This document shows positions 4,027 to 30,460 of a stretch of DNA of 34,086 bases, in pieces. Source of the stretch: Candidatus Methanophagales archaeon. Lineage in GTDB: Archaea > Halobacteriota > Syntropharchaeia > Alkanophagales > Methanospirareceae. Made by a program: the position numbers and the translations under genes. The number at the start of each line of letters is the position of its first letter. Position 1 is the first letter of the stretch. The stretch lies in NCBI GenBank assembly GCA_029241965.1, contig JAPWVK010000159.1, positions 1 to 34,086 on the forward strand, given 5' to 3'. The notes beneath the pieces are model-generated. The model saw nothing but the letters and a program-made list of their open reading frames with translations. It was not told the origin of the DNA and searched no databases.

Positions 4027-4063
4027 GGCTTTACACCATTTTTTCTGTGTCTTTTCAAATGAG

Positions 4064-5977
<1,914 letters not shown>

Positions 5978-6032
5978 CTATCTATTTATGTGAGATACAT
6001 TTAAATAAATCAGCATTAAAATTGCTGTATTT

Positions 6033-6184
6033 GTATAGCAAATTTTTAAAACCACGAGATTCCACAAGATCAACACAAGAAATAGGGATTAATGTGGGAT
6101 AATGTGGCCTATGGTATACTAAAATCTGGTTACTGCCCTTCTATTCTCGTGGAAATCGGTAAAATCTTGTGGTTAACTAAACAA
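6033..6184 (+). repeat. Interspersed intergenic repeat, copy A (left arm tgtatagcaaat..aaaccacgagattccacaagat, right arm ttctcgtggaaatcggtaaaatcttgtggttaactaaacaa)
   Basis: Same bipartite element also at 12291-12449 (+), 13971-14120 (-) and 33838-33994 (+); the arms contain mutually inverted ccacgag/ctcgtgg motifs. Confidence 0.5.
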
Positions 6185-6444
6185 TCACAAATTGCTCTCC
6201 ACCATCTATATTTTATCGTATAACCAAGCGGACAGTTTGATCTCGAAAGATGATGTTGGGCAAGTCACGAAGTATAAATAGAGGAAATAAAAATTAAAAT
6301 AGTGATTTGAAATGGAAGAGAGGTTTTGATATGTGATAAATGTTGATAGAAAGTTGGTTTGGGAATGAAGGAATCCGAGACAAAATCAGGGAAAAGAGAT
6401 AGTGATAGCGTGGCGAACAAAAGAAAAGATTCTGGTGTGTTGAA

Positions 6445-6696
6445 ATGGAGATAGAATTTCCATATGTGGAAGAGGAAAGCAGTGTGTTGGAGACAGTAAA
6501 GAGGCCCCGCATCAAGAGGGATGCTCTTTCGGAACTGGTAAGCGATTGGGTTACTATAGATGAGGTTTTGGTGGATACCGGTGCTGATTTCTGTGTGCTG
6601 CCAAAGTATATCGGTGAGACACTGGTTAAGGACATAACAACCGGCAATTTACCTCTTACGAAAATACCCCTTTCAGCCCAGTACTGTCCACCATGA
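6445..6696 (+). pseudogene. 3'-truncated retropepsin-like aspartic protease paralog (DTGAD active-site motif retained)
   Basis: 83-aa ORF, EFPYVEEES...LVDTGADFCVLPKYIGETLVKD aligns to the N-terminal ~80 aa of the 145-aa protease at 21699-22136 (FEYTEKES...LADTGADISVLPRDVGDLLIED) but ends early where it overlaps the convergent membrane-protein gene; a degenerate remnant of the partner small ORF lies just upstream (6400-6460). Confidence 0.45.
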
Positions 6697-7603
6697 TCAT
6701 ATTCAACCGTACCACTAACGCGAAAGAGAGCCCGAGGACCTCCCCGTTTGGTATGCCAAGCAGGAGGAACATCACCGCCGTTGTGCCTTCCATTAGCCCC
6801 AATCCCGACACTGTTACAGGCACGAACCTGAGAAGGGTAATCAAAGGATGCAGAAGGAAATAAGTCAAAAAGCTTAATTCGGTGATGCCCAGCGATAAAC
6901 CAATGAGCTGCCATTGAAGCGCCAGAAGTATCCAGCAGATGAAATATATAATGAGGATAACAGGAAGGCTATCCCGAATCGAAAGACTCTTATCCTTCAT
7001 ATTCTGAAAATCGTCCTTGAATTTCTTGATGTATGGTATCTTAGCGAGTAGATTGCTCGATAACGATTCATCTGTCCACAATATCCAGAGCATAACCACA
7101 CCCAAGCCACCAAAAATACAGCCGCCTATACACAATGATACCAGCACATTTGTGCTTATATTCACAGAAACCGCAGTGATAAAGAATATTAAGCCGAGGA
7201 AGCCGCCTACGACTTTCAAAACGAACTCTATACCCTGCGGTGCCAGAATTGCTGCCATACCGTGGGAAATACTGCAATTTGTACGATTCTTCAAGAAATA
7301 CGGTACAAGAAAAAACCCAGACCTGCCTGGCGTAACATCCGAGGCTATCATACCAGCAATGTGTGCAAAGAACGAATGCGTGAAACTAACCTTATTGCCC
7401 ATCGTACCCAGCAGGTAGTAAAGACGATACGCCATAATGAGGTTGTAGCAGAGATAGGAAATAGCTGCGGCTACGAATAATAAAATGTTTACACCTCTTA
7501 TCGCTGCTAACACCTCATGGATGTCTATCTTATAAAACAGAAGTGCGAGTATCGTTATTCCTATAAATACCTGGACGAATCTTCTTTTATTGTTCATAAA
7601 CAT
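6656..7603 (-). CDS. Flippase-like membrane protein (UPF0104 / lysyl-PG-synthase TM-domain family)
   Basis: ~8 TM helices, N-terminal pattern ILALLFYKIDIHEVLAAIRGVNILLFVAAAISYL...YRLYYLL typical of this family; 315 aa. Confidence 0.45.
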   Translation of the reverse strand: MFMNNKRRFVQVFIGITILALLFYKIDIHEVLAAIRGVNILLFVAAAISYLCYNLIMAYRLYYLLGTMGNKVSFTHSFFAHIAGMIASDVTPGRSGFFLVPYFLKNRTNCSISHGMAAILAPQGIEFVLKVVGGFLGLIFFITAVSVNISTNVLVSLCIGGCIFGGLGVVMLWILWTDESLSSNLLAKIPYIKKFKDDFQNMKDKSLSIRDSLPVILIIYFICWILLALQWQLIGLSLGITELSFLTYFLLHPLITLLRFVPVTVSGLGLMEGTTAVMFLLLGIPNGEVLGLSFALVVRLNMIMVDSTGLKGVFS

Positions 7604-14239: not shown

Positions 14240-14533
14240 CTACCCCCGCCATTCGGGGTAATCCTACTGCGGAACACGTCGGGGGTAACGCTTGCGTGGT
14301 AAGCTCGCAGGACAACGTGGAAAATCAGAAAGTCCGATTTGGATCAACTGCCAGGATAAGAACGCTATTTGTTGACAAGAAGTTGCATCACCGATTGCCT
14401 AACCGGGTACCCCCGCCATTCGGGGTAATCCTACCGCGGAATGCGCGGATGGGAACGTCCACGTAGTAAGCCCGCGGAACAACGTGTAAAATCTGAAAGT
14501 CCGGTTTAGATCAACTGCAAGGATAAAAACACC
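14240..14533 (+). ncRNA. Tandem pair of homologous structured RNA elements (copy 1 ~14240-14405, copy 2 ~14406-14533), candidate cis-regulatory leader or small RNAs; family not identified
   Basis: Two ~130-165-nt copies share CCCC-GCCATTC-GGGG hairpin, a long-range helix with compensatory changes (CTGCG...CGCAG vs CCGCG...CGCGG), inner hairpin ACGC..GCGT vs ACGT..ACGT, conserved GAAAGTCCG loop region. Confidence 0.35.
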
Positions 14534-14923
14534 ATGAAGAGCGTAAAGCGAACCATTGTAAGAGTCGTCACGTATAATAAGCGAAAACGGACTGTTACGC
14601 TTGGACCAAAAGGTACGGAATTTGGCCATAATGGCTACCATAACGTTATGGTGGGTGGACATACGATTCCCGGCTTACAGGCGGCTTCTAAGGTGTTCAT
14701 AAATATCTGTGATGTAGAACGTGGTAAGCCCTATATGCTCCCGGAATCACAGGGTAGGGACCTCGTAAGGGTAAACGATGGCTTAGAGGGTAGAGGATTT
14801 GGTAAAAAGCGAATGGCATCTTGTAATGAAAGGTATAGGGGTTCGAAATTTGCCCTAACCCGAAAGGGTGCTGACTTACCAAATTGGTGTTCCATTGTAT
14901 GCTTGGAGGCAGAATGTAAGTAG
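14534..14923 (+). CDS. Hypothetical small basic protein (129 aa)
   Basis: ATG immediately after the second RNA copy; K/R-rich N-terminus, several Cys; no recognisable family. Confidence 0.35.
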   Translation: MKSVKRTIVRVVTYNKRKRTVTLGPKGTEFGHNGYHNVMVGGHTIPGLQAASKVFINICDVERGKPYMLPESQGRDLVRVNDGLEGRGFGKKRMASCNERYRGSKFALTRKGADLPNWCSIVCLEAECK

Positions 14924-15171
14924 TTCAATTACGCCTGTAATAGGCGAGCGACTTACAGACATTCAACCAAAACGCCGATATCATATGGAAAGAGGTTGAA
15001 GAACTTGTTAACAGGTTGCAAACCTGAATTACAAAAGCAGTTAACTGCTGCCCGATACAGAAAGGGTTATGAAATGCTTGAGCGGTATGAAGGGAAACTT
15101 TCACGTACCGTTCTGAGACGAGGAGGGGCGAGCAATCGCCCCATCCTTAGTCTGCTAGCTAAACAAATAAT

Positions 15172-17783: not shown

Positions 17784-18200
17784 TTCTTTCTCCGTTATAC
17801 AACCCTTATTGCAGGAACCCAATCATCGTATATCTCCCCGTTTGCGTCCGTGAATTTGGTGCAGGTAATTTCTCCGCCTGTTACGTTTATTCTATGTTCG
17901 TGTACTATCTGCGGATATGATCCTGTTTTTATTGTATAGTTGTACTTTTTACCTTCTCTTAATTTAAATGTATTCGTGAAATTTATGTTTTGATACTCGT
18001 CATTGTAACCGTTCCATGAGGCACTTTCATTCACGCCATGCCCCTGAATCCAAACGTATTCGGTATGCCCGCCTGTGCCTTCACAGGAATACGTATAGAG
18101 TGTATGCACGGTAATATCAGCATTCGGCGTAATCGTTCCTATGTGTATGCCGGAGATGGAGGGATAGGTGCCTGGGCCCGTATGGAATATTGTTTTTTCG
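17762..18200. repeat. ~440-bp direct repeat (copy 1) ~93% identical to 18762-19198
   Basis: Near-identical nucleotide stretches offset by exactly 998 bp; they cover the shared C-terminal domain plus ~35 bp beyond the stop, including the MNIKTLAYG start of the next gene. Confidence 0.8.
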
Positions 18201-18661
18201 AGCACATTTACTGAGATCGGAATCCTAAGGCCAGAATATTCATTTCCACCAATATTTGTATCCTGAAATTGAATATACATCCTTCTCTCATCGGAATGCC
18301 CTACTTCGCATGCGCTTCCCGACGTTGCGCCATATAATCCTGGTTCGGCATTCTTTGGTATCTTGATTGTAACAGTAAAAGTTTTTATTTCTCCACTCTT
18401 GATCGTGTACTTCTCTGGTTCGACTCTGATCCATGATGTAATGTTAATCAATTCTTCATCATCTTTCTCTACATGCTCGTAATATACGGACCAATATCCA
18501 GTTCTCTCAGTAGGTATTGTCCCCACTAGTGTGATATTTTGATTTAATGTATCACCCGGACAGCCTTCCCAGTTGCACATAGAGCGGCAATCAACCGATG
18601 TCGCGGATGCCGCCGGAACGCACAACAGTGCAATCAACATTATCAGTATTATTTTCTTCAT
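17795..18661 (-). CDS. Secreted two-domain surface protein (N-terminal domain paralogous to 30464-31066 and 31063-31722 genes; C-terminal ~125-aa domain shared with 18800-19729 gene)
   Basis: Signal peptide MKKIILIMLIALLCVPAASA; N-domain ITSWIRVEPEKYTIKSGEIKTFTVTIKIPKNAEPGLYGATSG; C-domain GTYPSISGIHIGTITPNADITVHTLYTYSCEGTGGHTEYVWIQGHG... Confidence 0.55.
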   Translation of the reverse strand: MKKIILIMLIALLCVPAASATSVDCRSMCNWEGCPGDTLNQNITLVGTIPTERTGYWSVYYEHVEKDDEELINITSWIRVEPEKYTIKSGEIKTFTVTIKIPKNAEPGLYGATSGSACEVGHSDERRMYIQFQDTNIGGNEYSGLRIPISVNVLEKTIFHTGPGTYPSISGIHIGTITPNADITVHTLYTYSCEGTGGHTEYVWIQGHGVNESASWNGYNDEYQNINFTNTFKLREGKKYNYTIKTGSYPQIVHEHRINVTGGEITCTKFTDANGEIYDDWVPAIRVV

Positions 18662-18761
18662 AATTACCTGTACTATTTTCGTATTAAAAGTACTTTATTA
18701 ATTTCATGCTCTTTGGTGTTTCCTTTGGCGCTATTACCAAACACAGCGCACTAATGCTTAA

Positions 18762-19198
18762 TCCATACGCTAACGTTTTAATATTCATTTCTTTCTCCGT
18801 TATACAAACCTTATTGCAGGAACCCAATCATCGTATATCTCCCCGTTTGCGTCCGTGAATTTGGTGCAGGTGATTTCTCCGCCTGTTACGTTTTTGCTAT
18901 GTTCGTGTACTATCTGCGGATATGATCCTGTTTTTATTGTATAGTTGTACTTTTTACCTTCTACTAATATAAATGTATTCTCGAATTCTATGTTTTGATA
19001 ATCGTCATTGTAACCGTCCCATGAGGCACTTTCATTCACGCCATGCCCCTGAATCCAGACGTATTTGGTATGCCCGCCTGTGCCTTCACAGGAATACGTA
19101 TAGAGTGTATGCACGGTAATATCAGCATTCGGCGTAATCGTTCCAATGTGTATGCCGGAGATAGAGGGATAGGAGCCCTGACCCGTATCGAATAAAGT
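18762..19198. repeat. ~440-bp direct repeat (copy 2)
   Basis: See copy 1; downstream of this copy (18690-18790, minus strand) lies an orphan 5' fragment MNIKTLAYGLSISALCLVIAPKETPKSMKLIKY of the cohesin gene. Confidence 0.8.
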
Positions 19199-19729
19199 TC
19201 CGGTAGTATAAAACGTCCCGTTCTTCACTGGTGCTGGTCCTTCGTTACCAGACGGATCCGACAATTGAATATCACTCAGGTTCATGTCAGTTTTATATGG
19301 TGCACCGCCTATGACGCGGAAGTTAAGAAGGACGACAGAACCACTTGAGCCATTCAGTATGGCATGAGCGGATGGTCCTGAGAGTAAAACACGGGTACCC
19401 CATGCAAAGTTGTTGTTAAAGCCTAAATTGCCCCAATTAGACGTTAGAGTACCTCTTGAAACGCCTGTAACGTTTATAACCGTCTTGTCATACGCTATGT
19501 TGAATACAATGCCTAAAATCGGACCGCTGCTTGTATTTGTAATGTTTACCGGCACGGTTACATAAGTCCCTATAAGCCCATTGGCATCGTCAACACCGAA
19601 ATTATCTGCGGTGGGCGCCGCCAGAGCCGTTAACTCAAATATAGCAAATACCGTTAACAACCCGAATATAGCTAAACCCCCTCTCAGTCCTATTAAGCCT
19701 CTTCGTTTCCTCGATGCGGTTTTTTTCAT
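18800..19729 (-). CDS. Secreted cohesin-domain protein with shared C-terminal domain
   Basis: Signal peptide; cohesin-like GTYVTVPVNITNTSSGPILGIVFNIAYDKTVINVTGVSRGTL; C-terminal domain near-identical to that of 17795-18661. Confidence 0.55.
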   Translation of the reverse strand: MKKTASRKRRGLIGLRGGLAIFGLLTVFAIFELTALAAPTADNFGVDDANGLIGTYVTVPVNITNTSSGPILGIVFNIAYDKTVINVTGVSRGTLTSNWGNLGFNNNFAWGTRVLLSGPSAHAILNGSSGSVVLLNFRVIGGAPYKTDMNLSDIQLSDPSGNEGPAPVKNGTFYTTGTLFDTGQGSYPSISGIHIGTITPNADITVHTLYTYSCEGTGGHTKYVWIQGHGVNESASWDGYNDDYQNIEFENTFILVEGKKYNYTIKTGSYPQIVHEHSKNVTGGEITCTKFTDANGEIYDDWVPAIRFV

Positions 19730-19760
19730 TGTAGTATAATATTTCTTTGGTAAAGCTTTT

Positions 19761-20810
19761 TCATTTCTTCTTTCGCAACCAAAGGTATCCCATGAGTACG
19801 AGCAATCCTCCAGAAACGAGGGTCATTGTACTCCATTCAGGAATCGGGTAGCCCGGGTCCGTTCCGGGTGATGATATGTAGCTCCATGCCATACCGGTCT
19901 GCACCTTGTAGTCATAGCTCGTATTGTTGTTTGTCAGATTGAGTGCTAAAAACTTTCCTGCCGGCACAGTAAACGCTGCTGCGGTTGTTTCAAACGAGAA
20001 GACGCTTTTGCTGCCGTTTCCAGTCAGTGTTGCCTGTGGTCCTCCGGCAGTAAAATTGGTGCCACCCGAAGAATTACCTATCTCAACCTTGAATGTATCT
20101 CCGTCTGCCGGTGCCGCGACAAACGTTATCTGCCCTGTCCAATTGTTGCCATTCACTGGAAAGGTAACGTCTGTCTGCGCCGCTGAATCCGCAACCCAGA
20201 TATGAGAGTCGCTGTGGTTTATGGTAATATTACCCTGTGGTTTGGTCTGGTTTCCCTTGTACATCTCGCTGTCGTTGTGCAGATACCAGGACTGTGTGCC
20301 GCTGACAGTAAAAGTCCCATTCTTTGGGGGGGCAGATCCTATTCTATAACCGCTTACATCTGAGAAGCTTATATTTACATACGTAAAGTTCATAGTACTT
20401 GTTTCACCCCGAGTTCCAATAACGCTGAAGTTGAGTAGAGCGACAGAACCACTTGACCCATTTGATATGTTATATTCGGCAGCTCCCGTCATGTAAACAC
20501 GAGTACCCCATGTAACGCTGTTGTTATAGTCGAAATTATTCCAACTAGACGTTAAATTACCTTTTAAAACGTCTGTAACGTTTATGACATTTTTGTCATA
20601 CACAATATTAAATATTATTCCCAAAAGTGGACCGTTGCTAACATTTGTAATGTTCACCGGCACAATCACCGAAGTCCCATGTGCGCCACTCGCATCGTCC
20701 ACACCAAAACTTTCCGCAGTAGGATCTTGTGCTGAAACAGGCATCGCCATTACAAGTACTGACAACAGCACGATTGCACTTAGTCCATGCACCCATCTAT
20801 TTCTATTCAT
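19761..20810 (-). CDS. Secreted cohesin-domain glycoprotein with PEF-CTERM-like (PEW + TM + RKKK) C-terminal anchor
   Basis: Signal peptide; cohesin-like GTSVIVPVNITNVSNGPLLGIIFNIVYDKNVINVTDVLKGNL; sequon-rich C-terminal half; ends PEWSTMTLVSGGLLVLMGYLWLRKKK. Confidence 0.55.
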   Translation of the reverse strand: MNRNRWVHGLSAIVLLSVLVMAMPVSAQDPTAESFGVDDASGAHGTSVIVPVNITNVSNGPLLGIIFNIVYDKNVINVTDVLKGNLTSSWNNFDYNNSVTWGTRVYMTGAAEYNISNGSSGSVALLNFSVIGTRGETSTMNFTYVNISFSDVSGYRIGSAPPKNGTFTVSGTQSWYLHNDSEMYKGNQTKPQGNITINHSDSHIWVADSAAQTDVTFPVNGNNWTGQITFVAAPADGDTFKVEIGNSSGGTNFTAGGPQATLTGNGSKSVFSFETTAAAFTVPAGKFLALNLTNNNTSYDYKVQTGMAWSYISSPGTDPGYPIPEWSTMTLVSGGLLVLMGYLWLRKKK

Positions 20811-21084: not shown

Positions 21085-21714
21085 TCATGTCAATATGATT
21101 TCGCCCAATACCGCCCGGTTCATCAACACTAAATCGCCGGCATCTGCTATCCTATCGTTATGGTTCAAGTCCCACCGCCAATCTCCCGGTATTTCCCATA
21201 ACACCGCTCGGTTCATCAACACTAAATCGCCGGCATCTGCTGACTTCCCCTCATTGTTCAAATCGCCTACCAGCCAAAGCGATAGATTCGTGGTCTCATT
21301 GGCAGTTGCATTTACTTCAGTTGAGTTATCCCAATACCTTGTTTTCGAGGCGTTTACGTAATAATCGCCGGCATTAACGTTTGTAAAGTTGTAATAGCCC
21401 GTTCCGTTCGTGTGTGTTGAACTTACGACATTCATAGTGGTCGCGTTCGTCAAATTTACCGATACATTTGGCATCCCGATAGTAGTATTATTACTATATG
21501 TTATCTGCCCTGTTATAATTACGGGTGCGGGCAGCACCGTTACGTACTGTACTGCAGCAAACACGAGTGAGGGAAGCAGCGCTAATACCACTAAAATCAA
21601 TATGATCATCTCCTTCTTTCTATTACTCTGTTCCATCTTTTTAAATGCTCTTTTTTTGTTAGAATTTGCTTCAAAATCCAAAGCCGCACTAATCGCATTC
21701 ATTCTTCCCAGCAT
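21085..21714 (-). CDS. Dockerin-domain protein with carboxypeptidase-regulatory-like (PEGA-like) beta-sandwich domain
   Basis: Two dockerin repeats GDLNNEGKSADAGDLVLMNRAVLWEI and DLNHNDRIADAGDLVLMNRAVLGEI (DxNxDG...D...L..R..L); GQITYSNNTTIGMPNVSVNLTNATT...TNGTGYYNFTNVNAGDYYVNAS; TM/signal segment; likely true start at internal Met near 21636. Confidence 0.55.
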   Translation of the reverse strand: MLGRMNAISAALDFEANSNKKRAFKKMEQSNRKKEMIILILVVLALLPSLVFAAVQYVTVLPAPVIITGQITYSNNTTIGMPNVSVNLTNATTMNVVSSTHTNGTGYYNFTNVNAGDYYVNASKTRYWDNSTEVNATANETTNLSLWLVGDLNNEGKSADAGDLVLMNRAVLWEIPGDWRWDLNHNDRIADAGDLVLMNRAVLGEIILT

Positions 21715-22136
21715 AGTTTAACCTTCTCCCCCTTTAAAAAGTTAGCATCGAAGAGGTCTAAACCATTGACCCTGCCTAAGATTGGCGGAACATCATTTGA
21801 ATCTGAAATTGCCACTGGTAACTCGAATTCTTTACCGTTGAGTCTAAATTTGAGTTGGTGAATGTAAACGATTAGTTTTGCGTACGGAACAATCCCTCTT
21901 GTGACATCTTCAATTAATAAGTCGCCGACATCTCTTGGTAGGACCGATATATCAGCACCAGTATCTGCTAATGCATTCTCTATTTTTATCCATTCTAAAG
22001 TATCGCCTTTTATTTCAACTTCAATCAGAGGTCTTAATACCTTCCCAAAAATTCCACTTTCTTTTTCCGTGTACTCAAAAACTTTCTCGGGCATTTGAAC
22101 ACCTAAGCTATTAAAATTCCTGCTGGTGGCTCCCAT
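21699..22136 (-). CDS. Retropepsin-like (clan AA) aspartic protease
   Basis: ALADTGADISVLP active-site motif, GRV..L motif near the C-terminus (ILGRVNGLD); 145 aa. Confidence 0.5.
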   Translation of the reverse strand: MGATSRNFNSLGVQMPEKVFEYTEKESGIFGKVLRPLIEVEIKGDTLEWIKIENALADTGADISVLPRDVGDLLIEDVTRGIVPYAKLIVYIHQLKFRLNGKEFELPVAISDSNDVPPILGRVNGLDLFDANFLKGEKVKLCWEE

Positions 22137-22258
22137 CTAATAGATAATTTTTTGTTGGGATATTTCACCTTTGCTCGTTTCCACATCTCTTTTAAATTCC
22201 TACCTTCTAAAATTGGTTTTCCATCAGCCAATACAAAGTATTCATACATTTTTTCCAT
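22103..22258 (-). CDS. Small ORF (51 aa) overlapping the start of the protease gene, possible partner protein
   Basis: MEKMYEYFVLADGKPILEGRNLKEMWKRAKVKYPNKKLSIRWEPP; not in the six-frame track at this length cutoff; a degenerate copy precedes the truncated protease paralog at ~6400. Confidence 0.25.
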   Translation of the reverse strand: MEKMYEYFVLADGKPILEGRNLKEMWKRAKVKYPNKKLSIRWEPPAGILIA

Positions 22259-22343: not shown

Positions 22344-23801
22344 TTATACCGCTTCTCCCAACACCGACACCGTGGATGTGTCCGTTCCCGACCCTTTCAG
22401 CTCGTATGCCAGATACAAGTCATTGTAAGTTCCTACGGATACTGTTACCCCTGTATCTTTATAGCTACCCCATGACTTTAGAGTAGTCCAGCTACTGACC
22501 GCCCAGGGGCTCGTGTCATCTACGGTTACATTACAGAAATGAACCGGATAACTCTCTATGGCTGAAGACGTATTTGCATCCCTGACGAAGCATGCTAGCG
22601 TTATTGTCTCCCCTACGGTGTAACTATTTTCGTCAGGAGGCAAATCCCATGTTACGTTTGACCAGCCCCACTTAACCACCGACTCATTCTGATAAGAGCT
22701 GTTAGAATTAGATGCATTGTCATAAGTTGTTTCGGTAATATTGTATTCTCCGTCCTCAGGGACGGACAAAGTAACGACAAAAGTTCCATTTGTGGCGTTT
22801 GTAGTTGAATTGACTATCTTTCCTTCGTAAGGCACTTTGTCTATTTTCTTGATGATTACAGGTTTATTATTCTCATCAAGGGCGACCAAAATTCTTCCAT
22901 CCGAAATCTTCTGGTAGATGTTTTCTATCCTTATAAGAGAGAATTTATTTATATACCCGTTGCCAATATTATCAGTGGTGGTAGAAATGTCGGAAGTCGA
23001 AATCAGGTTTAAAGTTCCCACGGGATTGAAGGAAGAGATGGAAGAGCTTCCGGGAATGGAAGAGATGGTTGTAGAATTCATAAGGCTGAAGATTTTCGAG
23101 CATGAATTGAAGAAGTCTAAGGAATTACAGAGGTTCATATTTGAGTCGTTGTCCGCAAAGAGCAAATTGACGCTGGCAGATGCTATTGAACTTGGGGCGA
23201 AAATGAAGGAAGGAATGCTTGAAGAGCTCAAAGAGAAGGGATTACTGTAGATGAGACTGGTTGTGGATGCAAATGAGCTGTTCGCGGGGATAATCGCTAA
23301 AGGTAAGGAATTACAGAGTTGGACGCTGGACATATTATTTTCAGATGAAGTTGAATTGTTCGCACCTTTCATATTGCTTGCCGAATTGGAGAAGAACAGG
23401 GATGAGATAAGGGAAAAGTCAGGATTTTCCCTGAGGGATTTTGATGTGTTCGTTGGCATCCTCAAGTTAAGAGTCGGATTTATCCCTCTGGAGCGGTTTT
23501 TAGCTAAGATTCCGGAGGCTAAGGAGTTGGCACCGCATTTAAAAGATGTCGAATATTTCGCATAAGCATTGAAACTTGATTGCCCAATCTGGACGCAAGA
23601 AAAAGCGTTCAAAAAACAATCTGTAGTCAAGGTGTTCTCAACTCTTGATTTGTTTTCGTTTTTATCCGAGACAGGCCCATAGCCCGCTAAAGAGGTTGAA
23701 GGATATTTTGGATTGACTGAAGTGTAAACCTTATGCTCTGGCGAAAACGTCAGAACTGTTTCGTATCTACTCAAATCCATAAATCTTATTTTTTGCTTCA
23801 T
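22344..23801 (-). CDS. Truncated paralog of the giant surface protein (last ~190 aa) preceded by a third, N-terminally truncated intein-like element
   Basis: C-terminus ...SWTTLKSWGSYKDTGVTVSVGTYNDLYLAYELKGSGTDTSTVSVLGEAV nearly identical to the giant protein C-terminus; N-terminal part carries FSPEHKVY (Hint block B) and ILVALDENNKPVIIKKIDKVPYEGKI (Hint C-terminal half) around a low-complexity S/L-rich segment that is antisense to 22987-23682. Confidence 0.45.
   Translation of the reverse strand: MKQKIRFMDLSRYETVLTFSPEHKVYTSVNPKYPSTSLAGYGPVSDKNENKSRVENTLTTDCFLNAFSCVQIGQSSFNAYAKYSTSFKCGANSLASGILAKNRSRGINPTLNLRMPTNTSKSLRENPDFSLISSLFFSNSASNMKGANNSTSSENNMSSVQLCNSLPLAIIPANSSFASTTSLIYSNPFSLSSSSIPSFIFAPSSIASASVNLLFADNDSNMNLCNSLDFFNSCSKIFSLMNSTTISSIPGSSSISSFNPVGTLNLISTSDISTTTDNIGNGYINKFSLIRIENIYQKISDGRILVALDENNKPVIIKKIDKVPYEGKIVNSTTNATNGTFVVTLSVPEDGEYNITETTYDNASNSNSSYQNESVVKWGWSNVTWDLPPDENSYTVGETITLACFVRDANTSSAIESYPVHFCNVTVDDTSPWAVSSWTTLKSWGSYKDTGVTVSVGTYNDLYLAYELKGSGTDTSTVSVLGEAV
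22987..23250 (+). CDS. Small antitoxin-like protein (partner of the PIN gene), antisense within intein-like copy 3
   Basis: MSEVEIRFKVPTGLKEEMEELPG..., homologous to 26826-27050 and 27864-28094 products (shared E-[IV]-V-V/F-K/E-V-P N-terminus); stop abuts the PIN start (TAGATG); track ORF starts earlier at 22918. Confidence 0.45.
   Translation: MSEVEIRFKVPTGLKEEMEELPGMEEMVVEFIRLKIFEHELKKSKELQRFIFESLSAKSKLTLADAIELGAKMKEGMLEELKEKGLL
23251..23682 (+). pseudogene. PIN-domain toxin gene interrupted by an in-frame TAA
   Basis: MRLVVDANELFAGI... (PIN N-terminal Asp) ...HLKDVEYFA-stop-ALKLDCPIWTQEKAFKK...; intact paralogs read HLKDMPYVALSLKFDCKIL and DVDFFALALKLNCPLW at the same position. Confidence 0.45.
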
Positions 23802-26800
23802 ACCGCTTCTCCCAACACCGACACCGTGGATGTGCCCGTTCCCGACCCTTTCAGCTCGTATGCCAGATACAAGTCTTTGTGTGTTCCTTTGGATACTCTT
23901 ACCCCTGTATCTTTATAGCTACCCCAAGATTTTAGACTAATCCAGCTACCAACAGCCCCGGGGCTCGTGTCATTTGCGGTTACGTTAAACTTCTCGTCAT
24001 TTATTATTGTTGACCAACCGTTCACCTCTTCTACCTTCAGCCAGATCTTGTATTCAGTCGAAGAAGAAGGATTGTAAATTGTAACTACTGGTGAGTTACT
24101 GGTCACATTTTGCGGGTTGCCGCTGCCGTCCGCATTATTGTGTGGGTCAACTACTGTGGCACCAGTTGCACCCGAGAAGTTAATGGAACTGATACTCTGC
24201 GAAGCAGTTTGATTTCTGATTTCAAGTGTCGTTGCGTATGACAACTCTATGGATGTATTGGCTTCATCATCCGCAGTGACGTTATAAAACAGCGTGGCAT
24301 TATCCGTGATATTACATTTTGGATAGTACCATCCTACTGCCACGCCTGATGTATCCCAATCCAGGACGGCATATCCGCTGCTATTCGTGTAATTCAGACC
24401 AAGGTATGTCACGGTAGAGTCAGTCTTGTTATAAAAACGAACCGGATAATTCTCTATGCCCGATGAGGTATTGACATCGCGGACAAGGCATGTTAGCGTT
24501 ATTATCGCACCTGATTCGTAACTACTTCCGCCGGAAGGCGAGCCCCACGTTACGTTTGACCAACCCATCTTAAACACCGATTGATTTTGATACGAGATAT
24601 TATAATTCGATGCGTTATCATACATCTCTACCGACACGTTGTATTTCCCCTTAGCAGCACTTGAATTTAGATAAAAACTCGCATTTACATACGAATTTGG
24701 TGTGTAAGCAGTATCCGACGACGAATTGATGGTCGCAGTAGCGTTGTATATCGTGACCGTGTAGTTCTTTGGATTATCCTCCGTGTACGAGAAGTTGACA
24801 TAAAACTGCTCGCCGCCCTTCTTGTAGATTGGAACGGAAGTTGTAGGCACGTCTATCGTGATAGTCGGTGATTGCGAATCTATGGTGAAGTTCGTACCGA
24901 GCCACGTCTCTGACGTCTCGCCCTCATCGTCTGTTGCCACGCAATGCAACGTATAGAGTCCGGGACTATAATTGGATGCGTTGAACGCTATATCGGCAAT
25001 CCCGCCAGCGGCATCCGCTTCGGTAAAAGTATTGTTTACTATCGAAATAAATGTCTGGTTCGGATAGCACAAAGTCAGATTATGAACCACTGTGCCGCCG
25101 TCCGGATCGGTCGCAACCCCAACACCAATATCGAATATACCGTCATAGCTACCATTCATATCATAGTCCTTTACACCACTGATATTGAAATACCTAATGT
25201 GCGGGACGGTAGGTGGATAGTGCACCAATCTGATGTCGTTTGTAAGCAGCGTTGAATTGCTCCAACTACCCGATGCGTTTGCTGCATACAGCTTCATCTG
25301 GTGCTGCATACCACTTTTAGAGTAGTCGAAAAATAACTTCGGCGTCCATGCCGCCTGCAAAAATGACGAGCCATCATTGGTACTCGTCCATGCAACGTTT
25401 GTTTGCGCAAACGATATGTTCATACCGCTCGTACCATCTACATACGCCAGGCGGTACTCATTGCTTGTAGCTGTCGGAGATCGGAAGTATATGTATCCAT
25501 GCGGTGTTGTGTTTACGTCAGAACCTATAACCCTGCTATTGTTCACACCAATCGTAAAGGTCACGAACGAACTGTTGTACGGCTCGTACGTGTAATCATC
25601 TACTGTTGTGCCAGTGTACGAAGTCAAGTAAGTATAATATGGACTTTCGAGTGGCTTACCGCCAGTGATGTTATACGAGTCGTTTAGGTAGTAAATATCA
25701 AGATTGTTCGATGCTCCCAGATCGGTTGCCTCGAAAGCGATATGTATTTTATAGTCCGAAGAACCTTTAATTGCTTCAGTGTCCCAGAACTTGACCAGAG
25801 CAGCACGGTATCCTGTTGAGCCCTGTTTATAGATGTCATAATATTTGCTAATCTCTTTCTGCATCCGCGTCCTATCTAAGTAATACATGTTCTCAAATAC
25901 AGTATTCTCAACCGTGCCATTCCAGTGCACATACGAGTGCGTGTCATTTACCTTTTGGATAGTAAGCCGGGAAGTGTTTTCATCCGCGCCCGCCCATTTC
26001 CAGACGTTGCCCTCTGTGATGGTGGCATTATCCTCAAAGTTCAAGCGCTGTATTGTAGCATTCCGGTTATCGGCACGTAGAATCTGCTCGTTGCATAAAG
26101 CCCATACCGCAGATTTGTTGTTGCTCGGAACACGGAGTGACCAGTTATAACTATCGAGCACCGAGTCCCAGAGCGTCCAGACGAGCGATACGCTGCTGTT
26201 ATTGAGTGTATGTGTAGCATCCGTAGTAACCAACCAGGTTACGTTGAATGCACCGGTCGAGTTCTCGTAAATCGTAGCCGGCTCCTGCGAGATGAGTTCA
26301 AATGTCGGACAGCCCGCCTGATTGTATGCATAATCGACGTCACCACCAAATCGAAACTCTAATGCGTGTTTGCCCGAAGTTAAAACCTTACTTGTTTCGT
26401 AGCTGGTTTCGTTACAGGAATAATTGTGTATGAATAAGGAATTGTTTCGCCATTGATAATCCAGTGTGCGATTGCCGCATTTCAGGGCAAGCAATTGCAG
26501 GTCATAGTTTGAGTTGCCGCACCAGACAGGCGTTGAGTTTTTACGCCGTATTAAAAGTATGCGGTTCGGGACGGTAACAGAGTAAATCTTGCCGTTATAA
26601 GGGACTTCTTCGATTTTTTTTACTGCTACGGGATTCTGTTCGGAATCGAGGAATACTAACTGTTTGTCGGGTAGCTCGTGGAGTTCCGAGATTTTTAGCA
26701 ATGAATAGGTATTTAAACCGTTCGGATTTATAGTATTAGTGATGACGGTTTCTTTTTCATTCACGGTCACAGGCATCGAGAAGTTATTTAAATACAGCAA

Positions 26801-29800
26801 GTTAGTTTTATTATTGGTGAGAGAAATGGCCGAAATAGTTGTTAAGGTTCCAGAGGATATTGGTATAGAGCTTGGTAGGGTTTCAGAAGAGAATTGGCAA
26901 TTGTTATTCTCAAGATTCCTGAGAAGAGAGCTGGAAGAAATAAGAGGGATCGAAGCGATAGTATCTAAATCAAAACTAACAGAGGAGCAAGCCAAAGAAT
27001 TAGCAGATGAAGTAAGTTTAGCGATAGCTAAAAGACTTCTTGAGAAGTGATTCGAGATGTTATTGGTAGTTGACGCTAATGTCGTATTCTCAGCACTAAT
27101 AAGAAGAGGCAAGCCATTAAGGGTATTTGAGTTGAACAAGCTTCTCATGAAATTTGAATTTATTGCACCAGAGTTCCTGTTCTTTGAGGTGGGTAAAAGA
27201 ATGGATAAAATACTCAAGCTCACAGATTTATCTAAAGAAGAGTTCATAACGGTTTTTTCATTCATTAAGAATGAACTCGAGCTAATTCCTCTTGAAACAT
27301 TTGAAGATAAAGTTGATGAAGCCAAGGAGAGATCACCACACTTGAAGGATATGCCATATGTTGCTTTATCCCTCAAATTCGATTGTAAGATTCTGTCTGG
27401 AGATAAAGGAATAAAGGAATGCTTGCCTGGTAGAGTCATCATACCATCTAAAGCCTTAAGAATTCTATTTGGGAGGACTGCACCATAAACCTTATGCTCA
27501 GGCGAAACCAGCAGTTGACTGCCATCTTCCAGAGTAAGCTCGAACATCGCATCCGAATAGTCGTATTCCAGATATTTAATCGGTTTCTGATTGCAAAAAA
27601 GTTTTGTGTGTTCTTTTGTAATTTGTGGTTTCCTTGTGGTTTCGTTATGCCGTTTCACCAGCACGATGTCGTTCGGGACGTCAACGTCATAAATCTTGCC
27701 GGTATAAGGGACTTCTTCGATTTTTTTTACTGCTACGGGATTCAGCTCGGAGTCAAGGAATACTAACTGTTTGTCTGATAGCTTGTCATAGAGTTCCGAT
27801 ATTTTTAGCAATGAATAAGTATTTAAATACAGCAAGCCAGTCTTATAATTAGGGGCGATAGAAATGTCAGAGTTAGTTGTTGAGGTTCCAGGATTGCTTA
27901 GAGGAGAGGTTGGTAAGCTAGAGCGAGAGATAGAGGAGCTAATATCGTGGGAGGAGAAGCGTAAATTACTCTCTCTGTTCATGGATGAGGTTATGAAAGA
28001 TGCTAAACAGTTGAGCGAAGACGAACTGGTTACACTTGGAAGAGAGATTAAGAAAGGCAGGTTTGAAAAGCTCAAGCAAAGGGGGTTTGTATGAGTGCGG
28101 TTAGTTGCTGACACAACCGAACTCTTCTCGTTCTTCAACGCTCGGTCAAAGGCAAGGGAGTTATCCATAATCCCTGAATTGGAATTACATTCCCCCTCCT
28201 TTTCTTTATATGAACTCAAAGAACATAAATCCAAGATTCTTACGAGTTTCTCGTTGACCGAGACACAGTTTCTATTGATAATGAAGTTGCTTAAGACCGT
28301 TGTAAAAGTTGCTAAAGAGGAAGAATACTCGGATTTTCTATCGGAGGCTAAGGAAATATCTCCAGACCCTAACGATGTAGATTTCTTTGCGTTGGCTCTG
28401 AAACTGAACTGTCCGCTTTGGTCAGAGGATAAGCTGCTAAAGGGGCAGTCTAAGGTTAAGGTACTCTCTACAAAAGATTTACTTGAACTTTTATCTCTCA
28501 TCAGCCCATAAACCTTATGCTCAGGCGAAACCAGCAGTTTACTGCCATCCGCCAGAGTAAGCTTGAACATCGCATCCGAATAGTCGTATTCCAGATATTT
28601 AATCGGTTTCTGCCATTCCTGCTCTCCCGTCTCCTGGTTTAAAGTCAGAACTTCTTCTTCTGGTTCTAAATCTTTGAACAGTTTCCAGCCTTCTTTTGTT
28701 AGAACCTCGGTTTCTTCGTCGTAACATTCGTACGGTTGGTTAGTCCAGGTCGTCCCGTTAACCGCGGTTATAGTCAAATCCGCAGTTCCTTCCGTCTCGA
28801 ACTTGACAGACCAGTTTCCACCTACTGCTGGATAAGACTGGACATTAATTATACTAATCGGATCAACAGCAACATACCAGGGTCTTGCCTCTGTAAATGT
28901 TTCTGAATCATAACTAATTTCCGCAGTACCTAAAGCGTACAAATAAGGCCACACAGGAGGAACTGCGTAAGAATAACTGACAGATGTTTTCTTGCCAATT
29001 AAATCTTTATTCCAGGTTATTGTCTTTGTATCGTCTTCCTGCATAACCGTAGCGGCATCCGTTGAATACACATCGAACTCAGCAGGCACAAATTCTTTTA
29101 ACGTTACGGATTCCGCATCAGTAAAGCATTCTACGTCAATCCTGACCTCAAACCTGTCCTGCAGTGTGGGGTCTATCTTGCTTTGTGTCGTTCTTATGAT
29201 GTCGAATTCATACTCCGGCTGAACCCGGAAATACGTATTGAAGAATACTTCAACGTTGTCAATTAAACCCGTGACTGAGATCGAGTGATTACCCTCTATT
29301 TCCGTTGGGTAATCCAGGTTATAAATGCCAGATTCGCTACTTGCGGTAATCGTGCCATCAGCGGTGGAATAAATCGTTTCCTCGTTATCGGGATTGTTTA
29401 CGGTTAAATAAAGATCGGCATTGCTGACTGAGTGCCCTGCTTTATCCAGGACAACGATAACGAATTCCACGGTTTCACCGGGTTTGTAGATGCTTTTTTT
29501 GGTGTTTACGGAAACAAGGCCCCACGGGAATTCGGATTCTAAAACGTAAACGTGCTCGTCCTTCACTAACTCCACACTTAATGTATATACGCCCACTCGG
29601 AATGCTCGTTCCTTAGGCAATTTAATTGCGAATTTGCCTTCGCCTTTTTTCGCTATTTCGGGCGCGATGTCTGTTAGTGCACCCGAAGAATCATAAACAA
29701 AAGTCTCTATCGTTTCGTTTTCTGTCACCCAGCGTTTCAATGCTTTTTGGGGTGCGCCAATAGCAGCTTCCTCACTTACAGTGCTAAGCATTTCCCGCGA

Positions 29801-30460
29801 TGCGTTTTCGGTAACATTTTCATTAAAAGTTTTCTGCGAAGCGTTTTTGATAAAACTTTTATTAAAAGTTTTATATTCAAACGAAAAAGTCGGTTCCTCA
29901 TCCAGGGAATAAGACTCTTTGTTTGCAATTAGTTTTGGCGGTTCAATCACGGATTCCGTAACATTAATATTACGTGATTCACCTGTTGATTCGTTAATCG
30001 TATAATTCAAACCGATGACGGAGGTATTATCAGTTGCATTTTCCGGTGTTTGTATCGTAACGCCCGAGGCATTACCTGTTGTATTATCCGTTGTATTTTC
30101 CGGTGTTTGTAACGTAACGCCCGAGGCATTACCTGTTGTACTATTATTAGTTGCAGTTTCAGGTGTTTGTATCGTAATGCCCGTGGCATTATCAGTTGTG
30201 TTATCAGTTACATTATCAGGTGATAGTATCGGATTTATCGGTGCCGTTACGTCCGTAATATTTTCTGACGGGGTATCATTAAGGTTAGTTACGTATGATG
30301 TAATGTTTTCAGGCAGCGTTGTGTTCTCGTTTTGTGTTGCACCAAAAGCGATTAAAGGCACGATAAGCAAAGCTATGACAATTGTAATGCGTGCGCTCTT
30401 CCAGTTTGTTTTTGCTCTTAGCATCTTTTCGCAGGTCAAGCTTCCTTTTCTATCATACAT
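23798..30460 (-). CDS. Giant secreted cell-surface glycoprotein (2220 aa) containing two tandem intein-like insertions
   Basis: N-terminal signal/TM (ARITIVIALLIVPLIAFGA), three 22-aa tandem repeats, very high density of N-x-S/T sequons throughout, repeated beta-rich domains, C-terminal domain shared with 22344-23801 and 31856-32419 products; likely true start at MLRAKT (~30424). Confidence 0.55.
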   Translation of the reverse strand: MYDRKGSLTCEKMLRAKTNWKSARITIVIALLIVPLIAFGATQNENTTLPENITSYVTNLNDTPSENITDVTAPINPILSPDNVTDNTTDNATGITIQTPETATNNSTTGNASGVTLQTPENTTDNTTGNASGVTIQTPENATDNTSVIGLNYTINESTGESRNINVTESVIEPPKLIANKESYSLDEEPTFSFEYKTFNKSFIKNASQKTFNENVTENASREMLSTVSEEAAIGAPQKALKRWVTENETIETFVYDSSGALTDIAPEIAKKGEGKFAIKLPKERAFRVGVYTLSVELVKDEHVYVLESEFPWGLVSVNTKKSIYKPGETVEFVIVVLDKAGHSVSNADLYLTVNNPDNEETIYSTADGTITASSESGIYNLDYPTEIEGNHSISVTGLIDNVEVFFNTYFRVQPEYEFDIIRTTQSKIDPTLQDRFEVRIDVECFTDAESVTLKEFVPAEFDVYSTDAATVMQEDDTKTITWNKDLIGKKTSVSYSYAVPPVWPYLYALGTAEISYDSETFTEARPWYVAVDPISIINVQSYPAVGGNWSVKFETEGTADLTITAVNGTTWTNQPYECYDEETEVLTKEGWKLFKDLEPEEEVLTLNQETGEQEWQKPIKYLEYDYSDAMFKLTLADGSKLLVSPEHKVYGLMRDKSSSKSFVESTLTLDCPFSSLSSDQSGQFSFRANAKKSTSLGSGDISLASDRKSEYSSSLATFTTVLSNFIINRNCVSVNEKLVRILDLCSLSSYKEKEGECNSNSGIMDNSLAFDRALKNEKSSVVSATNRTHTNPLCLSFSNLPFLISLPSVTSSSSLNCLASFITSSMNRESNLRFSSHDISSSISRSSLPTSPLSNPGTSTTNSDISIAPNYKTGLLYLNTYSLLKISELYDKLSDKQLVFLDSELNPVAVKKIEEVPYTGKIYDVDVPNDIVLVKRHNETTRKPQITKEHTKLFCNQKPIKYLEYDYSDAMFELTLEDGSQLLVSPEHKVYGAVLPNRILKALDGMMTLPGKHSFIPLSPDRILQSNLRDKATYGISFKCGDLSLASSTLSSNVSRGISSSSFLMNEKTVMNSSLDKSVSLSILSILLPTSKNRNSGAINSNFMRSLFNSNTLNGLPLLISAENTTLASTTNNISNHFSRSLLAIAKLTSSANSLACSSVSFDLDTIASIPLISSSSLLRNLENNNCQFSSETLPSSIPISSGTLTTISAISLTNNKTNLLYLNNFSMPVTVNEKETVITNTINPNGLNTYSLLKISELHELPDKQLVFLDSEQNPVAVKKIEEVPYNGKIYSVTVPNRILLIRRKNSTPVWCGNSNYDLQLLALKCGNRTLDYQWRNNSLFIHNYSCNETSYETSKVLTSGKHALEFRFGGDVDYAYNQAGCPTFELISQEPATIYENSTGAFNVTWLVTTDATHTLNNSSVSLVWTLWDSVLDSYNWSLRVPSNNKSAVWALCNEQILRADNRNATIQRLNFEDNATITEGNVWKWAGADENTSRLTIQKVNDTHSYVHWNGTVENTVFENMYYLDRTRMQKEISKYYDIYKQGSTGYRAALVKFWDTEAIKGSSDYKIHIAFEATDLGASNNLDIYYLNDSYNITGGKPLESPYYTYLTSYTGTTVDDYTYEPYNSSFVTFTIGVNNSRVIGSDVNTTPHGYIYFRSPTATSNEYRLAYVDGTSGMNISFAQTNVAWTSTNDGSSFLQAAWTPKLFFDYSKSGMQHQMKLYAANASGSWSNSTLLTNDIRLVHYPPTVPHIRYFNISGVKDYDMNGSYDGIFDIGVGVATDPDGGTVVHNLTLCYPNQTFISIVNNTFTEADAAGGIADIAFNASNYSPGLYTLHCVATDDEGETSETWLGTNFTIDSQSPTITIDVPTTSVPIYKKGGEQFYVNFSYTEDNPKNYTVTIYNATATINSSSDTAYTPNSYVNASFYLNSSAAKGKYNVSVEMYDNASNYNISYQNQSVFKMGWSNVTWGSPSGGSSYESGAIITLTCLVRDVNTSSGIENYPVRFYNKTDSTVTYLGLNYTNSSGYAVLDWDTSGVAVGWYYPKCNITDNATLFYNVTADDEANTSIELSYATTLEIRNQTASQSISSINFSGATGATVVDPHNNADGSGNPQNVTSNSPVVTIYNPSSSTEYKIWLKVEEVNGWSTIINDEKFNVTANDTSPGAVGSWISLKSWGSYKDTGVRVSKGTHKDLYLAYELKGSGTGTSTVSVLGEAV
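26826..27050 (+). CDS. Small antitoxin-like protein, antisense within intein-like copy 2
   Basis: MAEIVVKVPEDIGIELGRVSEENWQLLFSRFLRRELEEIRGIEAIVSKSKLTEEQAKELADEVSLAIAKRLLEK; 6 nt upstream of the PIN start; track ORF starts earlier at 26739. Confidence 0.5.
   Translation: MAEIVVKVPEDIGIELGRVSEENWQLLFSRFLRRELEEIRGIEAIVSKSKLTEEQAKELADEVSLAIAKRLLEK
27057..27488 (+). CDS. PIN-domain (VapC-like, PIN_3-like) toxin
   Basis: MLLVVDANVVFSAL (Asp6), FEFIAPEFLFFEV (conserved Glu), HLKDMPYVALSLKFDCKILSGDKG (C-terminal Asp motifs); 143 aa. Confidence 0.6.
   Translation: MLLVVDANVVFSALIRRGKPLRVFELNKLLMKFEFIAPEFLFFEVGKRMDKILKLTDLSKEEFITVFSFIKNELELIPLETFEDKVDEAKERSPHLKDMPYVALSLKFDCKILSGDKGIKECLPGRVIIPSKALRILFGRTAP
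27864..28094 (+). CDS. Small antitoxin-like protein, antisense within intein-like copy 1
   Basis: MSELVVEVPGLLRGEVGKLEREIEELISWEEKRKLL...; stop TGA directly abuts the GTG start of the PIN gene. Confidence 0.5.
   Translation: MSELVVEVPGLLRGEVGKLEREIEELISWEEKRKLLSLFMDEVMKDAKQLSEDELVTLGREIKKGRFEKLKQRGFV
28095..28511 (+). CDS. PIN-domain (VapC-like) toxin, GTG start
   Basis: VRLVADTTELFSFF (Asp), ...EISPDPNDVDFFALALKLNCPLWSEDK; 138 aa. Confidence 0.55.
   Translation: MRLVADTTELFSFFNARSKARELSIIPELELHSPSFSLYELKEHKSKILTSFSLTETQFLLIMKLLKTVVKVAKEEEYSDFLSEAKEISPDPNDVDFFALALKLNCPLWSEDKLLKGQSKVKVLSTKDLLELLSLISP
30030..30240 (-). repeat. Three tandem ~66-bp coding repeats (22-aa sequon-rich units DNTTGNASGVTIQTPENATDNT) near the 5' end of the giant gene
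   Basis: Repeated nucleotide unit cgtaacgcccgaggcattacctgttgt... visible three times; sits within the 30424/30460-23798 giant-protein CDS. Confidence 0.6.

Follow-up and report, generated by a model that had tools for sequence, protein, structure and literature searches.

Class 1 inteins such as those of DnaE, DnaB, KlbA and NrdHF lie in frame within conserved replication and repair enzymes and are built from the Hint blocks A, B, F and G, with an N-terminal cysteine in block A, an S/TxxH motif in block B, a penultimate histidine and a terminal asparagine followed by serine; a large insert, the homing endonuclease, occupies the loop after block B. Bacterial intein-like (BIL) domains, reportedly described by Amitai and colleagues in 2003, are Hint domains found at non-conserved sites of hypervariable secreted and surface proteins, where they often cleave rather than splice and are proposed to add variability. 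Chromosomal integrons are cassette arrays that can hold toxin-antitoxin (TA) cassettes, and in the VapBC type II TA modules the gene just upstream of the PIN nuclease encodes a small antitoxin and decay begins with inactivation of the toxin, the antitoxin being kept. In the fractured genes reported in 2009 (PMC2677866), an independent gene with its own expression signals is found between the two intein halves, after motif N4/block B; the three coding regions lie on the same strand, the host is broken into two open reading frames (ORFs) and the intein works in trans. The present work concerns a stretch of 34,086 nucleotides from a Candidatus Methanophagales archaeon (contig JAPWVK010000159.1, hereafter the window) and, within it, an ORF at 22344-23801 on the minus strand which starts inside an intein-like Hint domain and reads antisense through a TA operon, together with the family of Hint elements to which this ORF is related.

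Three two-gene units are nested on the plus strand of the window, each flanked by a Hint block B (SPEHKVY) on one side and by a Hint C-half on the other, both read on the minus strand. Cassettes 1 (antitoxin 27864-28094, PIN_2 toxin 28095-28511) and 2 (antitoxin 26826-27050, PIN_2 toxin 27057-27488) have both genes intact and are hosted by a giant surface-protein ORF of 2220 aa (23798-30460, minus strand) with a signal-like N-terminus, an MG2 domain and an Intein_splicing match, the N-terminal homologue of which, at 93% identity, is annotated as Candidatus Methanophagaceae. The third unit belongs to the downstream ORF of 485 aa, whose ATG overlaps the TGA stop of the giant ORF in an ATGA at 23798-23801 (minus strand) and which consists, in order, of a start inside the Hint N-half, an antisense read-through of the cargo, a truncated Hint C-half and a shortened C-terminal domain (D'). 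That the gene begins inside a third intein-like element had been noticed in an earlier reading of the sequence, here called the original prediction, and we find the same. An exact database look-up of the 485-aa product returned no record, because gene callers cut the ORF to 181 aa. We consider it probable that copy 3 represents, in its most degraded known form, a conserved second gene which starts inside a Hint domain, and that the Hint domains concerned form a family with an antisense TA operon in the Hint loop.

The conservation of this second gene is seen most clearly in a divergent genome (L125, GCA_964400255.1), where a search with the downstream ORF found a protein of 699 aa, P0046. The locus is syntenic, with an MG2 protein, the same four-base ATGA overlap, P0046, and then CarboxypepD_reg-like and cohesin genes. 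P0046 opens with MKQRIRFEDFLNPEMNEKEWQKP..LLGSPEHTVYG, that is, with the start found in the window followed by a Hint N-half from about position 20, and continues to a complete C-half (..GKIYDVTVPNHIIMVKREGKAVWSGN^SQSL, where ^ marks the junction) and a full D' of 326 aa, which shares 65% identity with the C-terminal 291 residues of the protein encoded upstream. The start MKQ(K/R)IRF inside the N-half, kept in L125, is also that of L003, the closest relative of the window locus (97% DNA identity over 987 bp, the alignment stopping exactly at the ATG). Since both start and junction are conserved in L125, the 3'-domain duplication is old, as is the stop/ATG junction inside the Hint, and neither is an accident of the window genome; the truncation that the original prediction saw in this paralog is thus not a recent one.

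These relatives also allow the losses to be ordered. Block A is missing from L003 and P0046 as well as from the window, and L003 lacks 29 more N-half residues than P0046, a loss which the window shares. In L003 and P0046 alike the PIN gene and the Hint C blocks F/G are intact and the C-terminal domain is full; compared with them, only the window has lost 27 codons of the C-half and 147 codons of D', acquired a giant-like sequence over its last 188 bp and gained a TAA within the PIN gene. On these sequences L125, L003 and the window appear to form a graded decay series, of which copy 3 would be the most degraded version known. The earlier proposal of a decaying copy created by partial duplication of the gene's 3' region is borne out in so far as copy 3 is more decayed than L003 and P0046 and a tandem D/D' duplication underlies the locus.

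Of the Hint N-half, only the block B remnant FSPEHKVY (23724-23747, minus strand) is left in copy 3, as had been claimed: the hidden Markov model (HMM) of the family Hint N finds nothing beyond it, and the ORF begins MKQKIRF with no block A. The C-half remnant (22812-22949, minus strand) covers HMM positions 1-46. Relative to L003, an in-frame deletion of 81 bp (27 codons) between 22815 and 22816 takes out blocks F/G including the terminal Asn, and the C-terminal junction reads GKI^VNSTTN in the window, compared with GKIYDVTVPNHIIMVKR(D/E)GK(V/A)VWSGN^SQSL in the orthologues. Lacking Cys1 and the terminal Asn, copy 3 can sustain no Hint chemistry, and with block A missing and blocks F/G deleted from the window copy it fails as a functional intein.

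The remaining domain, D', is Ig-like or structural, with a weak Big_13 match, and is composed of two tracts. Its N-terminal part (22534-22811, minus strand) is 90% identical to L003 and 74-76% identical to the giant gene at 24429-24645 (22531-22724 against 24429-24622 gives 76%). Its 3' end (22346-22533, minus strand) is nearer to the 3' end of the giant ORF at 23800-23987 (90%) than to L003 (74%), which marks it as a gene-conversion or recombination tract; at the upstream edge of this tract 441 bp (147 codons) of giant-equivalent sequence, 23988-24428, are absent. The original prediction had the gene duplicating the last ~190 codons of the giant ORF, and of this the 3' homology stands while the extent must be revised, for the 156 codons that follow the Hint match the last ~295 codons of the giant ORF with a 441-bp gap and reach 90% over just 188 bp.

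Decay is not the only way to read such a gene. The alternative that survives best, though we hold it to be rather unlikely, is that the downstream ORF is maintained, either as a gene or module that ribosomes reach by termination-reinitiation at the ATGA or as a recombination donor for the exchange of surface-protein C-terminal domains, in the manner of the orphan C-terminal modules of polymorphic toxin loci, with homology provided by the 5' block B and the conserved 3' end. The start and overlap conserved in L125, with the same start in L003, suit such a module, as do the 485 open codons in which both deletions are in frame, the conversion of the 188-bp 3' tract by the giant gene, the block B DNA that the ORF shares with the giant gene's Hints (22 bp at 95%) and the presence in L003 of a second unit that starts near block B after the stop of the orthologue. 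The ORF has, however, no signal peptide, no Cys1 and, in the window, no terminal Asn; its window copy has lost 147 codons of D'; and an open frame is to be expected by inertia at just 3% divergence from L003. Nor does the locus have the make-up of an orphan module of polymorphic-toxin type, its PIN/antitoxin pair being antisense and cytoplasmic. Arrays of orphan modules were also considered as a general rule of the family and rejected, the 40 partial Hint N matches being mostly internal tandem units or frameshifted arrays (L105, L100, L117) rather than tidy modules.

The second unit of L003 lies at 1-180 (minus strand) of that contig, starts near block B (MMMRKQRGKNKKEDGSKLLVSQEHRVYG) 75 nt past the orthologue's stop, and has a leader that resembles the sequence upstream of the orthologue's own start. 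The same contig has an exact terminal repeat of 94 bp (1-94 and 3299-3392).

Two other explanations of the junction were tried and set aside. In a split-intein reading, the giant C-terminus VLGEAV and the downstream MKQKIRFMDL would be collinear with the Hint sequence VLTKEG/WKLFKDL. It is rejected because P0046 aligns the Met to about Hint position 20 and because the motif with which the giant ORF ends (..STVSVLGEAV, then the stop) also ends D' and the unrelated P0047 and P0050; no N-intein fragment was found at the 3' end of the upstream giant ORF. A programmed -1 frameshift at the ATGA, which would fuse the two ORFs, was likewise set aside, there being no slippery sequence in the window or in L125. 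The locus also departs from the fractured genes. It has in common with them an independent gene with its own expression signals at the same intein position but differs in that the cargo is antisense and the host frame continuous, and in that the break in copy 3 lies upstream of block B with no N-intein piece on the upstream gene.

The elements of the window are members of a wider family. When species-representative genomes were scanned with a Hint alignment, 72 loci were obtained, mostly from Woese-, Pace-, Nano-, Aenigm- and Altiarchaeota together with Methanosarcinales and Methanophagales, and the family HMMs place a single uninterrupted host ORF across the insert of ~0.5-1.7 kb in 70 of 73 Hint N/Hint C pairs (with some redundancy between loci). 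Nearly every long insert has two antisense ORFs. A PIN gene is found in 38 inserts, antisense in all of them and sense in none, and 135 of the 177 antisense ORFs are in the wobble-aligned phase, where third codon positions on one strand lie opposite those on the other. By Pfam the cargo includes PIN_2, DUF433 with DUF5615, ParE, DUF2283, Gp49 and an aspartyl protease. At the boundary of insert and Hint C, 47 of 67 elements have a TATA-like octamer on the cargo strand (4.6% of control windows), accompanied by a purine run resembling a B recognition element (BRE) in 28 of the 67 (1.6% of control windows). The TATA-like element of copies 1 and 2 is TATTTAAATA, and the host motifs YINKF and LYLN are the reverse complements of the TATA-like elements of the window. 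In a coverage of the literature that was incomplete and is no proof of novelty, we found no description of inteins or Hint domains with TA, PIN or antisense genes; the family is apparently undescribed.

The likeness to classical inteins is best judged from the composite Hint element of the giant ORF (26513-28726, minus strand), which lies in frame in its host protein and contains one Cys1 (CYDEETEVLT), two units of block B, cargo and block F, each with its large insert after block B, and one terminal ..VWCGN^S; it therefore has Cys1, the block B His (SPEHKVY), the terminal Asn and a +1 nucleophile. Alignment places the putative block G at this end, and P0003, L003, L002 and L105 share the junction motif VW[SC]GN^S. 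The giant ORF composite and its family score above cut-off with two intein models (PF14890, 37.1 bits against 35.8; TIGR01445, 33.2 bits against 24.5), and the family profile matches the solved inteins AceL NrdHF, DnaE and KlbA in the PDB with a best E of 2.8e-5. An AlphaFold (AF2) model of the 739-aa composite has a mean predicted local distance difference test (pLDDT) score of 39.8, the Hint parts being beta structure at 70-82 and the inserts disordered at 25-35. Foldseek against the PDB gave no match at E <= 0.001; its ~24 top matches are Hint folds (inteins, hedgehog, BIL) with a probability of 0.95-1.0. Among the fold matches are the solved BIL domains 2lwy and 6tmm. An intein-free version of the host domain is found in P0009, where LTIIALNKT^VDLHFLEIKCGN stands against LTITAVNGT[TWTNQPYE-C...WCGN-SNY]DLQLLALKCGN in the window, this being one comparison only.

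From classical inteins the family differs in several respects. The insert is the reverse complement of a TA operon, is predicted to be disordered and shows no homing endonuclease domain in the host frame by Pfam; the hosts are variable surface proteins, entered at many sites, rather than conserved replication and repair enzymes; the penultimate His is Gly; and copy 3 is without blocks A, F and G. The family resembles BIL domains in being placed in hypervariable secreted or surface proteins at non-conserved sites. Unlike it, BIL domains are small and have no cargo genes, while the family described here is archaeal, has its best sequence matches to intein models and contains antisense operons. 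Splicing or cleavage by these Hint domains may be argued from the conservation of the host frame, to which we now turn.

Across the three cassettes of the window the host frame on the minus strand has 0 stops, compared with 15-26 stops in each of the other minus frames, and the six cargo genes on the plus strand are all in one relative phase. An explanation that must be weighed is that this frame is a compositional by-product of Glu/Lys/Leu-rich TA genes and is never translated, the Hint halves being decayed fragments that flank ordinary TA operons. We judge this improbable. The wobble-aligned antisense phase is indeed the lowest in stops (reference genes have 0.028 per codon in this phase, and the longest run reaches 283 codons), single genes remain open in 19-100% of resamplings that keep their amino-acid sequences, and cassettes outside Hints are open too. 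Chance openness of this kind does not extend to Hint N and Hint C being joined in frame in one ORF in nearly all of the elements across several unrelated cargo families, or to the joint probability of ~0.006 for an open host frame over the window's six genes; the existence of an intein-free host domain speaks against it as well. The weight of the argument is on the 113 wobble-aligned cargo genes (12,256 codons), where 5 host-frame stops are found and 83.7 are expected from synonymous resampling, a 17-fold depletion, which suggests that the host frame is held open by selection at synonymous sites. Within the PIN3 family (relatives of the copy 3 toxin), no T precedes the CAx/TAx codons at ~10 sites, but this stop avoidance is not significant by itself, as the members share ancestry and have mostly Lys/Glu as the preceding residues. 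In an alignment of 13 cassette-3 sequences, variable columns number 109, 75 and 194 at cargo codon positions 1, 2 and 3, which indicates that the amino-acid constraint is on the cargo strand and that the host frame is merely held open.

The original prediction took copy 3 to be a third copy of one cassette which travels with the surrounding host coding sequence, and neither part of this can be upheld. Pairwise identity among the three cassettes is 30-39% for the PINs and 27-33% for the antitoxins, so they are not recent copies of each other and copy 3 is not derived from cassette 1 or 2. Between copies 1 and 2, Hint flanks that are 87-96% identical in DNA surround cargo that is just 30% identical; at one edge the similarity ends precisely with the PIN stop codon, at the other it ends within the antitoxin gene. 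In L125 the orthologous site is occupied by another TA pair, whose PIN is 50% identical to PIN1 and 39% to PIN3. Three tandem cassettes occupy the giant's Hint site in L001, where the giant gene has its closest relative; the first of them is window copy 2 (94% DNA identity), the others have other cargo, and the cargo of window copy 1 is absent from L001. Close relatives of PIN3 (83-94% aa identity) are mostly found outside recognisable Hints, sometimes in arrays. Taken together, these comparisons show that cargo is exchanged independently of the host frame. The composite array of cassettes 1 and 2 appears to have arisen by unequal crossing-over between Hint repeats.

The integrons offer a parallel for such exchange, with tandem TA cassettes that have a short repeated junction between them (L036, L001 and the giant ORF composite) and cargo swapped between conserved flanks; unlike integrons, the loci studied here show no integrase or attC, the whole array is open in a single frame of the opposite strand and every cassette comes with its own promoter. 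In L036 (57-3305) a frame of 1083 codons is open antisense through at least five TA cassettes, with a repeated junction (SPISITYNNIGNAYINTFSSTLTSCEDA..) between them and almost no Hint parts. Close relatives of cassette 3 without a detectable Hint occur on the metagenome contigs L004-L016; their wobble-aligned antisense frame is open over the TA module (~270-290 codons) and they also retain the antisense-promoter motif. At the internal boundary of the window's composite Hint (..VKRHN-ETTRKPQITKEHTKLFCNQ-KPIKY..) there is no nucleophile. The host ORF of L001 is stopped inside a Hint N-half at 3677-3695 (ORFs 1598-3679 and 3695-6763), in a decaying element or by an assembly error. Fragments of the PIN C-terminus occur alone at many loci, and in L029 (939-1355) and L030 (644-1081) the PINs are chimeric, their first ~100 residues being PIN1-type-like while the last ~40 hardly differ from the PIN3 type. 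Recombination is thereby indicated at the conserved FALALKL(N/D)CPIW motif, where the window's TAA lies as well.

In each of cassettes 1-3, taken as putative TA pairs, a small antitoxin gene is placed immediately upstream of the PIN toxin gene in a two-gene operon of VapBC-like layout. The differences from VapBC are that the toxin is PIN_2 (PF10130) and not the classical VapC PIN, that the antitoxin is weakly ribbon-helix-helix (RHH)/VapB-like and that the operon is antisense within coding sequence. The PINs of copies 1 and 2 match PF10130 with E values of 8e-22 and 3e-20 and have the PIN_2 domain, with all its conserved acidic residues, in one polypeptide, which copy 3 does not. There the toxin is a pseudogene (23251-23682, plus strand) that matches PF10130 at E 2.9e-19 once the stop is replaced by Leu, the frame being otherwise intact. 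The in-frame TAA (23563-23565, plus strand), reported in the original prediction and found again by us, is codon 105 and corresponds to Leu in copies 1 and 2; it leaves a product of 104 aa without the fourth (last) acidic residue (WTQEK) and the C-terminal 38 aa. Position 23564 is A in the window and T in L003 and 11 other cassette-3 relatives (12/12), so that the change from TTA (Leu) to TAA is derived in the window lineage.

The stop differs by one base from the Leu codon of the relatives and the window is metagenome-assembled, and a sequencing or assembly error, with PIN3 intact in the organism, was named from the outset as a doubt; we regard it as very improbable. The shortened product of 104 aa is recorded on 5 contigs, and L121 (Logan, SRR12623520), L124 (ENA ERZ25746585) and L123 show no difference from the window (100% identity) across the stop, the ATGA junction and the deletions, with L122 (SRR22302358) spanning window 22392-23406. 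Identity among separately assembled contigs makes a random assembly error unlikely, and the same lineage has other damaging changes in PIN3, such as R40I, which hits the otherwise invariant APFRLLAELE. Least credible of all is a decoding of the TAA by programmed read-through or recoding to give full-length PIN3: the frame is unbroken past the stop and encodes what still resembles the C-terminus of a PIN, the unbroken frame being expected if the mutation were recent, but all relatives use an ordinary Leu codon at the site, other genes of the window, the downstream ORF among them, terminate with TAA, and we know of no recoding of TAA in archaea.

The partner antitoxin (22987-23250, plus strand; 87 aa) is intact, in agreement with the earlier observation, and its stop (23248-23250) directly abuts the PIN ATG at 23251. 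It is RHH/VapB-like by weak matches only (a weak precomputed match to PF26688 RHH_12, and NCBIfam VapB at E 0.005, below cut-off), the Pfam scan giving no match. Its promoter is intact too: a TATA-box-like TTTATATA is found at 22948-22955 (plus strand), 32-39 nt upstream of the antitoxin ATG, where the host strand reads the conserved YINKF, and GGTGGT lies ahead of the ATG at 22977-22982 (plus strand). The ratio of nonsynonymous to synonymous rates (dN/dS) was tried on the 13-sequence alignment, where dS was saturated (nan) for many pairs, and codon-position variability and polarised substitutions were used instead. Polarised with outgroups, PIN3 has ~8 nonsynonymous and 3 synonymous changes in the window lineage as against 2 and 1 in L003, while the antitoxin has 1 change in the window lineage and 3 in L003. 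The direction of these substitutions fits a relaxed constraint on the toxin alone, the numbers being small and the trend suggestive. The antitoxin and its promoter are probably the sole functional remainder of copy 3, an orphan antitoxin beside a dead toxin, which might neutralise related PINs.

Several points weigh against the picture of a decayed gene in a translated Hint family. The independence of the samples behind the assemblies that carry the TAA is not certain, and the nonsynonymous excess in PIN3 amounts to ~14 substitutions, which is merely suggestive. Copy 3 retains a host frame of 485 codons free of stops, both deletions being in frame, and this fits a continued use of the ORF too; moreover, because PIN3-type cassettes outside Hints are also open antisense, an open frame is by itself no proof of current translation. 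For the Hint domains, the AlphaFold model is poor overall and no fold match reaches E <= 0.001, and for both translation through the cargo and Hint activity the conservation of the frame is the whole of the argument.

With these reservations, the following history and mechanism may be proposed. The Hint family would sit in archaeal secreted and surface proteins, and the loop after block B would hold a type II TA operon, of an RHH-type antitoxin with a PIN_2 nuclease or of other TA families, on the opposite strand and under its own archaeal BRE/TATA promoter. The host would be translated straight through the cargo as an unstructured Ser/Leu/Asn-rich linker, which the Hint would then remove by splicing or cleavage, while the TA pair would make loss of the element costly or would just use the Hint loop as a safe insertion site. 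At the locus of copy 3, block A with its Cys1 would have been lost long ago, when the stop/ATG junction arose between the duplicated domain D and the Hint, as is shared with L125; further loss of the N-half would have followed in the common ancestor with L003; and in the window lineage blocks F/G would have gone with the 81-bp deletion, 441 bp of D' would have been lost, the 3' end would have been converted by the giant gene and the toxin would have been lost by the change from TTA to TAA along with extra amino-acid changes. A more ambitious scheme, which we put forward as doubtful, has the Hint serving as a 'splice-out' platform with integron-like exchangeable antisense TA cassettes, which would be swapped between the conserved Hint flanks, build up into arrays and have their promoters encoded within host codons; Hint DNA would then be a portable homology for the shuffling of extracellular domains, the junction would mark a maintained second product or recombination donor, and copy 3 would represent one stage of the cycle, its orphan antitoxin giving anti-addiction immunity against the related PINs of the giant gene.

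As to its surroundings, the window also codes for AglB/STT3, GyrB and cohesin-domain proteins. Directly downstream of the 485-aa ORF, on the same strand (21699-22258, minus), are a DUF5678 gene (51 aa) and a retropepsin-like aspartyl-protease gene (145 aa), and an aspartyl protease like this one is antisense cargo within Hint elements of other genomes. Cohesin-domain proteins and a CarboxypepD_reg-like protein are encoded downstream of the surface-protein genes at 17795-20810 (minus strand), in synteny with 7234-11780 of L125. Near its 5' end, at 29968-30231, the giant ORF has four tandem repeats of 57-60 nt, which encode a TPEN(A/T)TDNT..GVT(I/L)QTPE segment after the signal-like N-terminus. 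Rfam finds pieces of group II introns (D1-D4 and domain V-VI models, up to 112 bits) at 1553-2173 (minus strand) and 14244-15155 (plus strand), which suggests group II intron insertions or remnants elsewhere in the window.

A toxin killed by a stop codon beside an intact antitoxin is, taken alone, ordinary TA decay, and it is the context that gives it weight: the conserved start inside the Hint, the swap of cargo at the orthologous site and the antisense architecture that is found throughout the family. In the series from L125 through L003 to the window, the catalytic ends of the Hint appear to be lost before the toxin, and the last parts to remain are the antitoxin with its promoter and the open host frame. 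The family spans surface proteins of DPANN, ANME-1 and related archaea. Should the Hint indeed remove a linker encoded antisense to the cargo, selfish genes would here have a new means of residing harmlessly in coding sequence, long-range dual-strand coding under selection would have a clean example, and the elements might offer a source of inteins that tolerate large arbitrary inserts.

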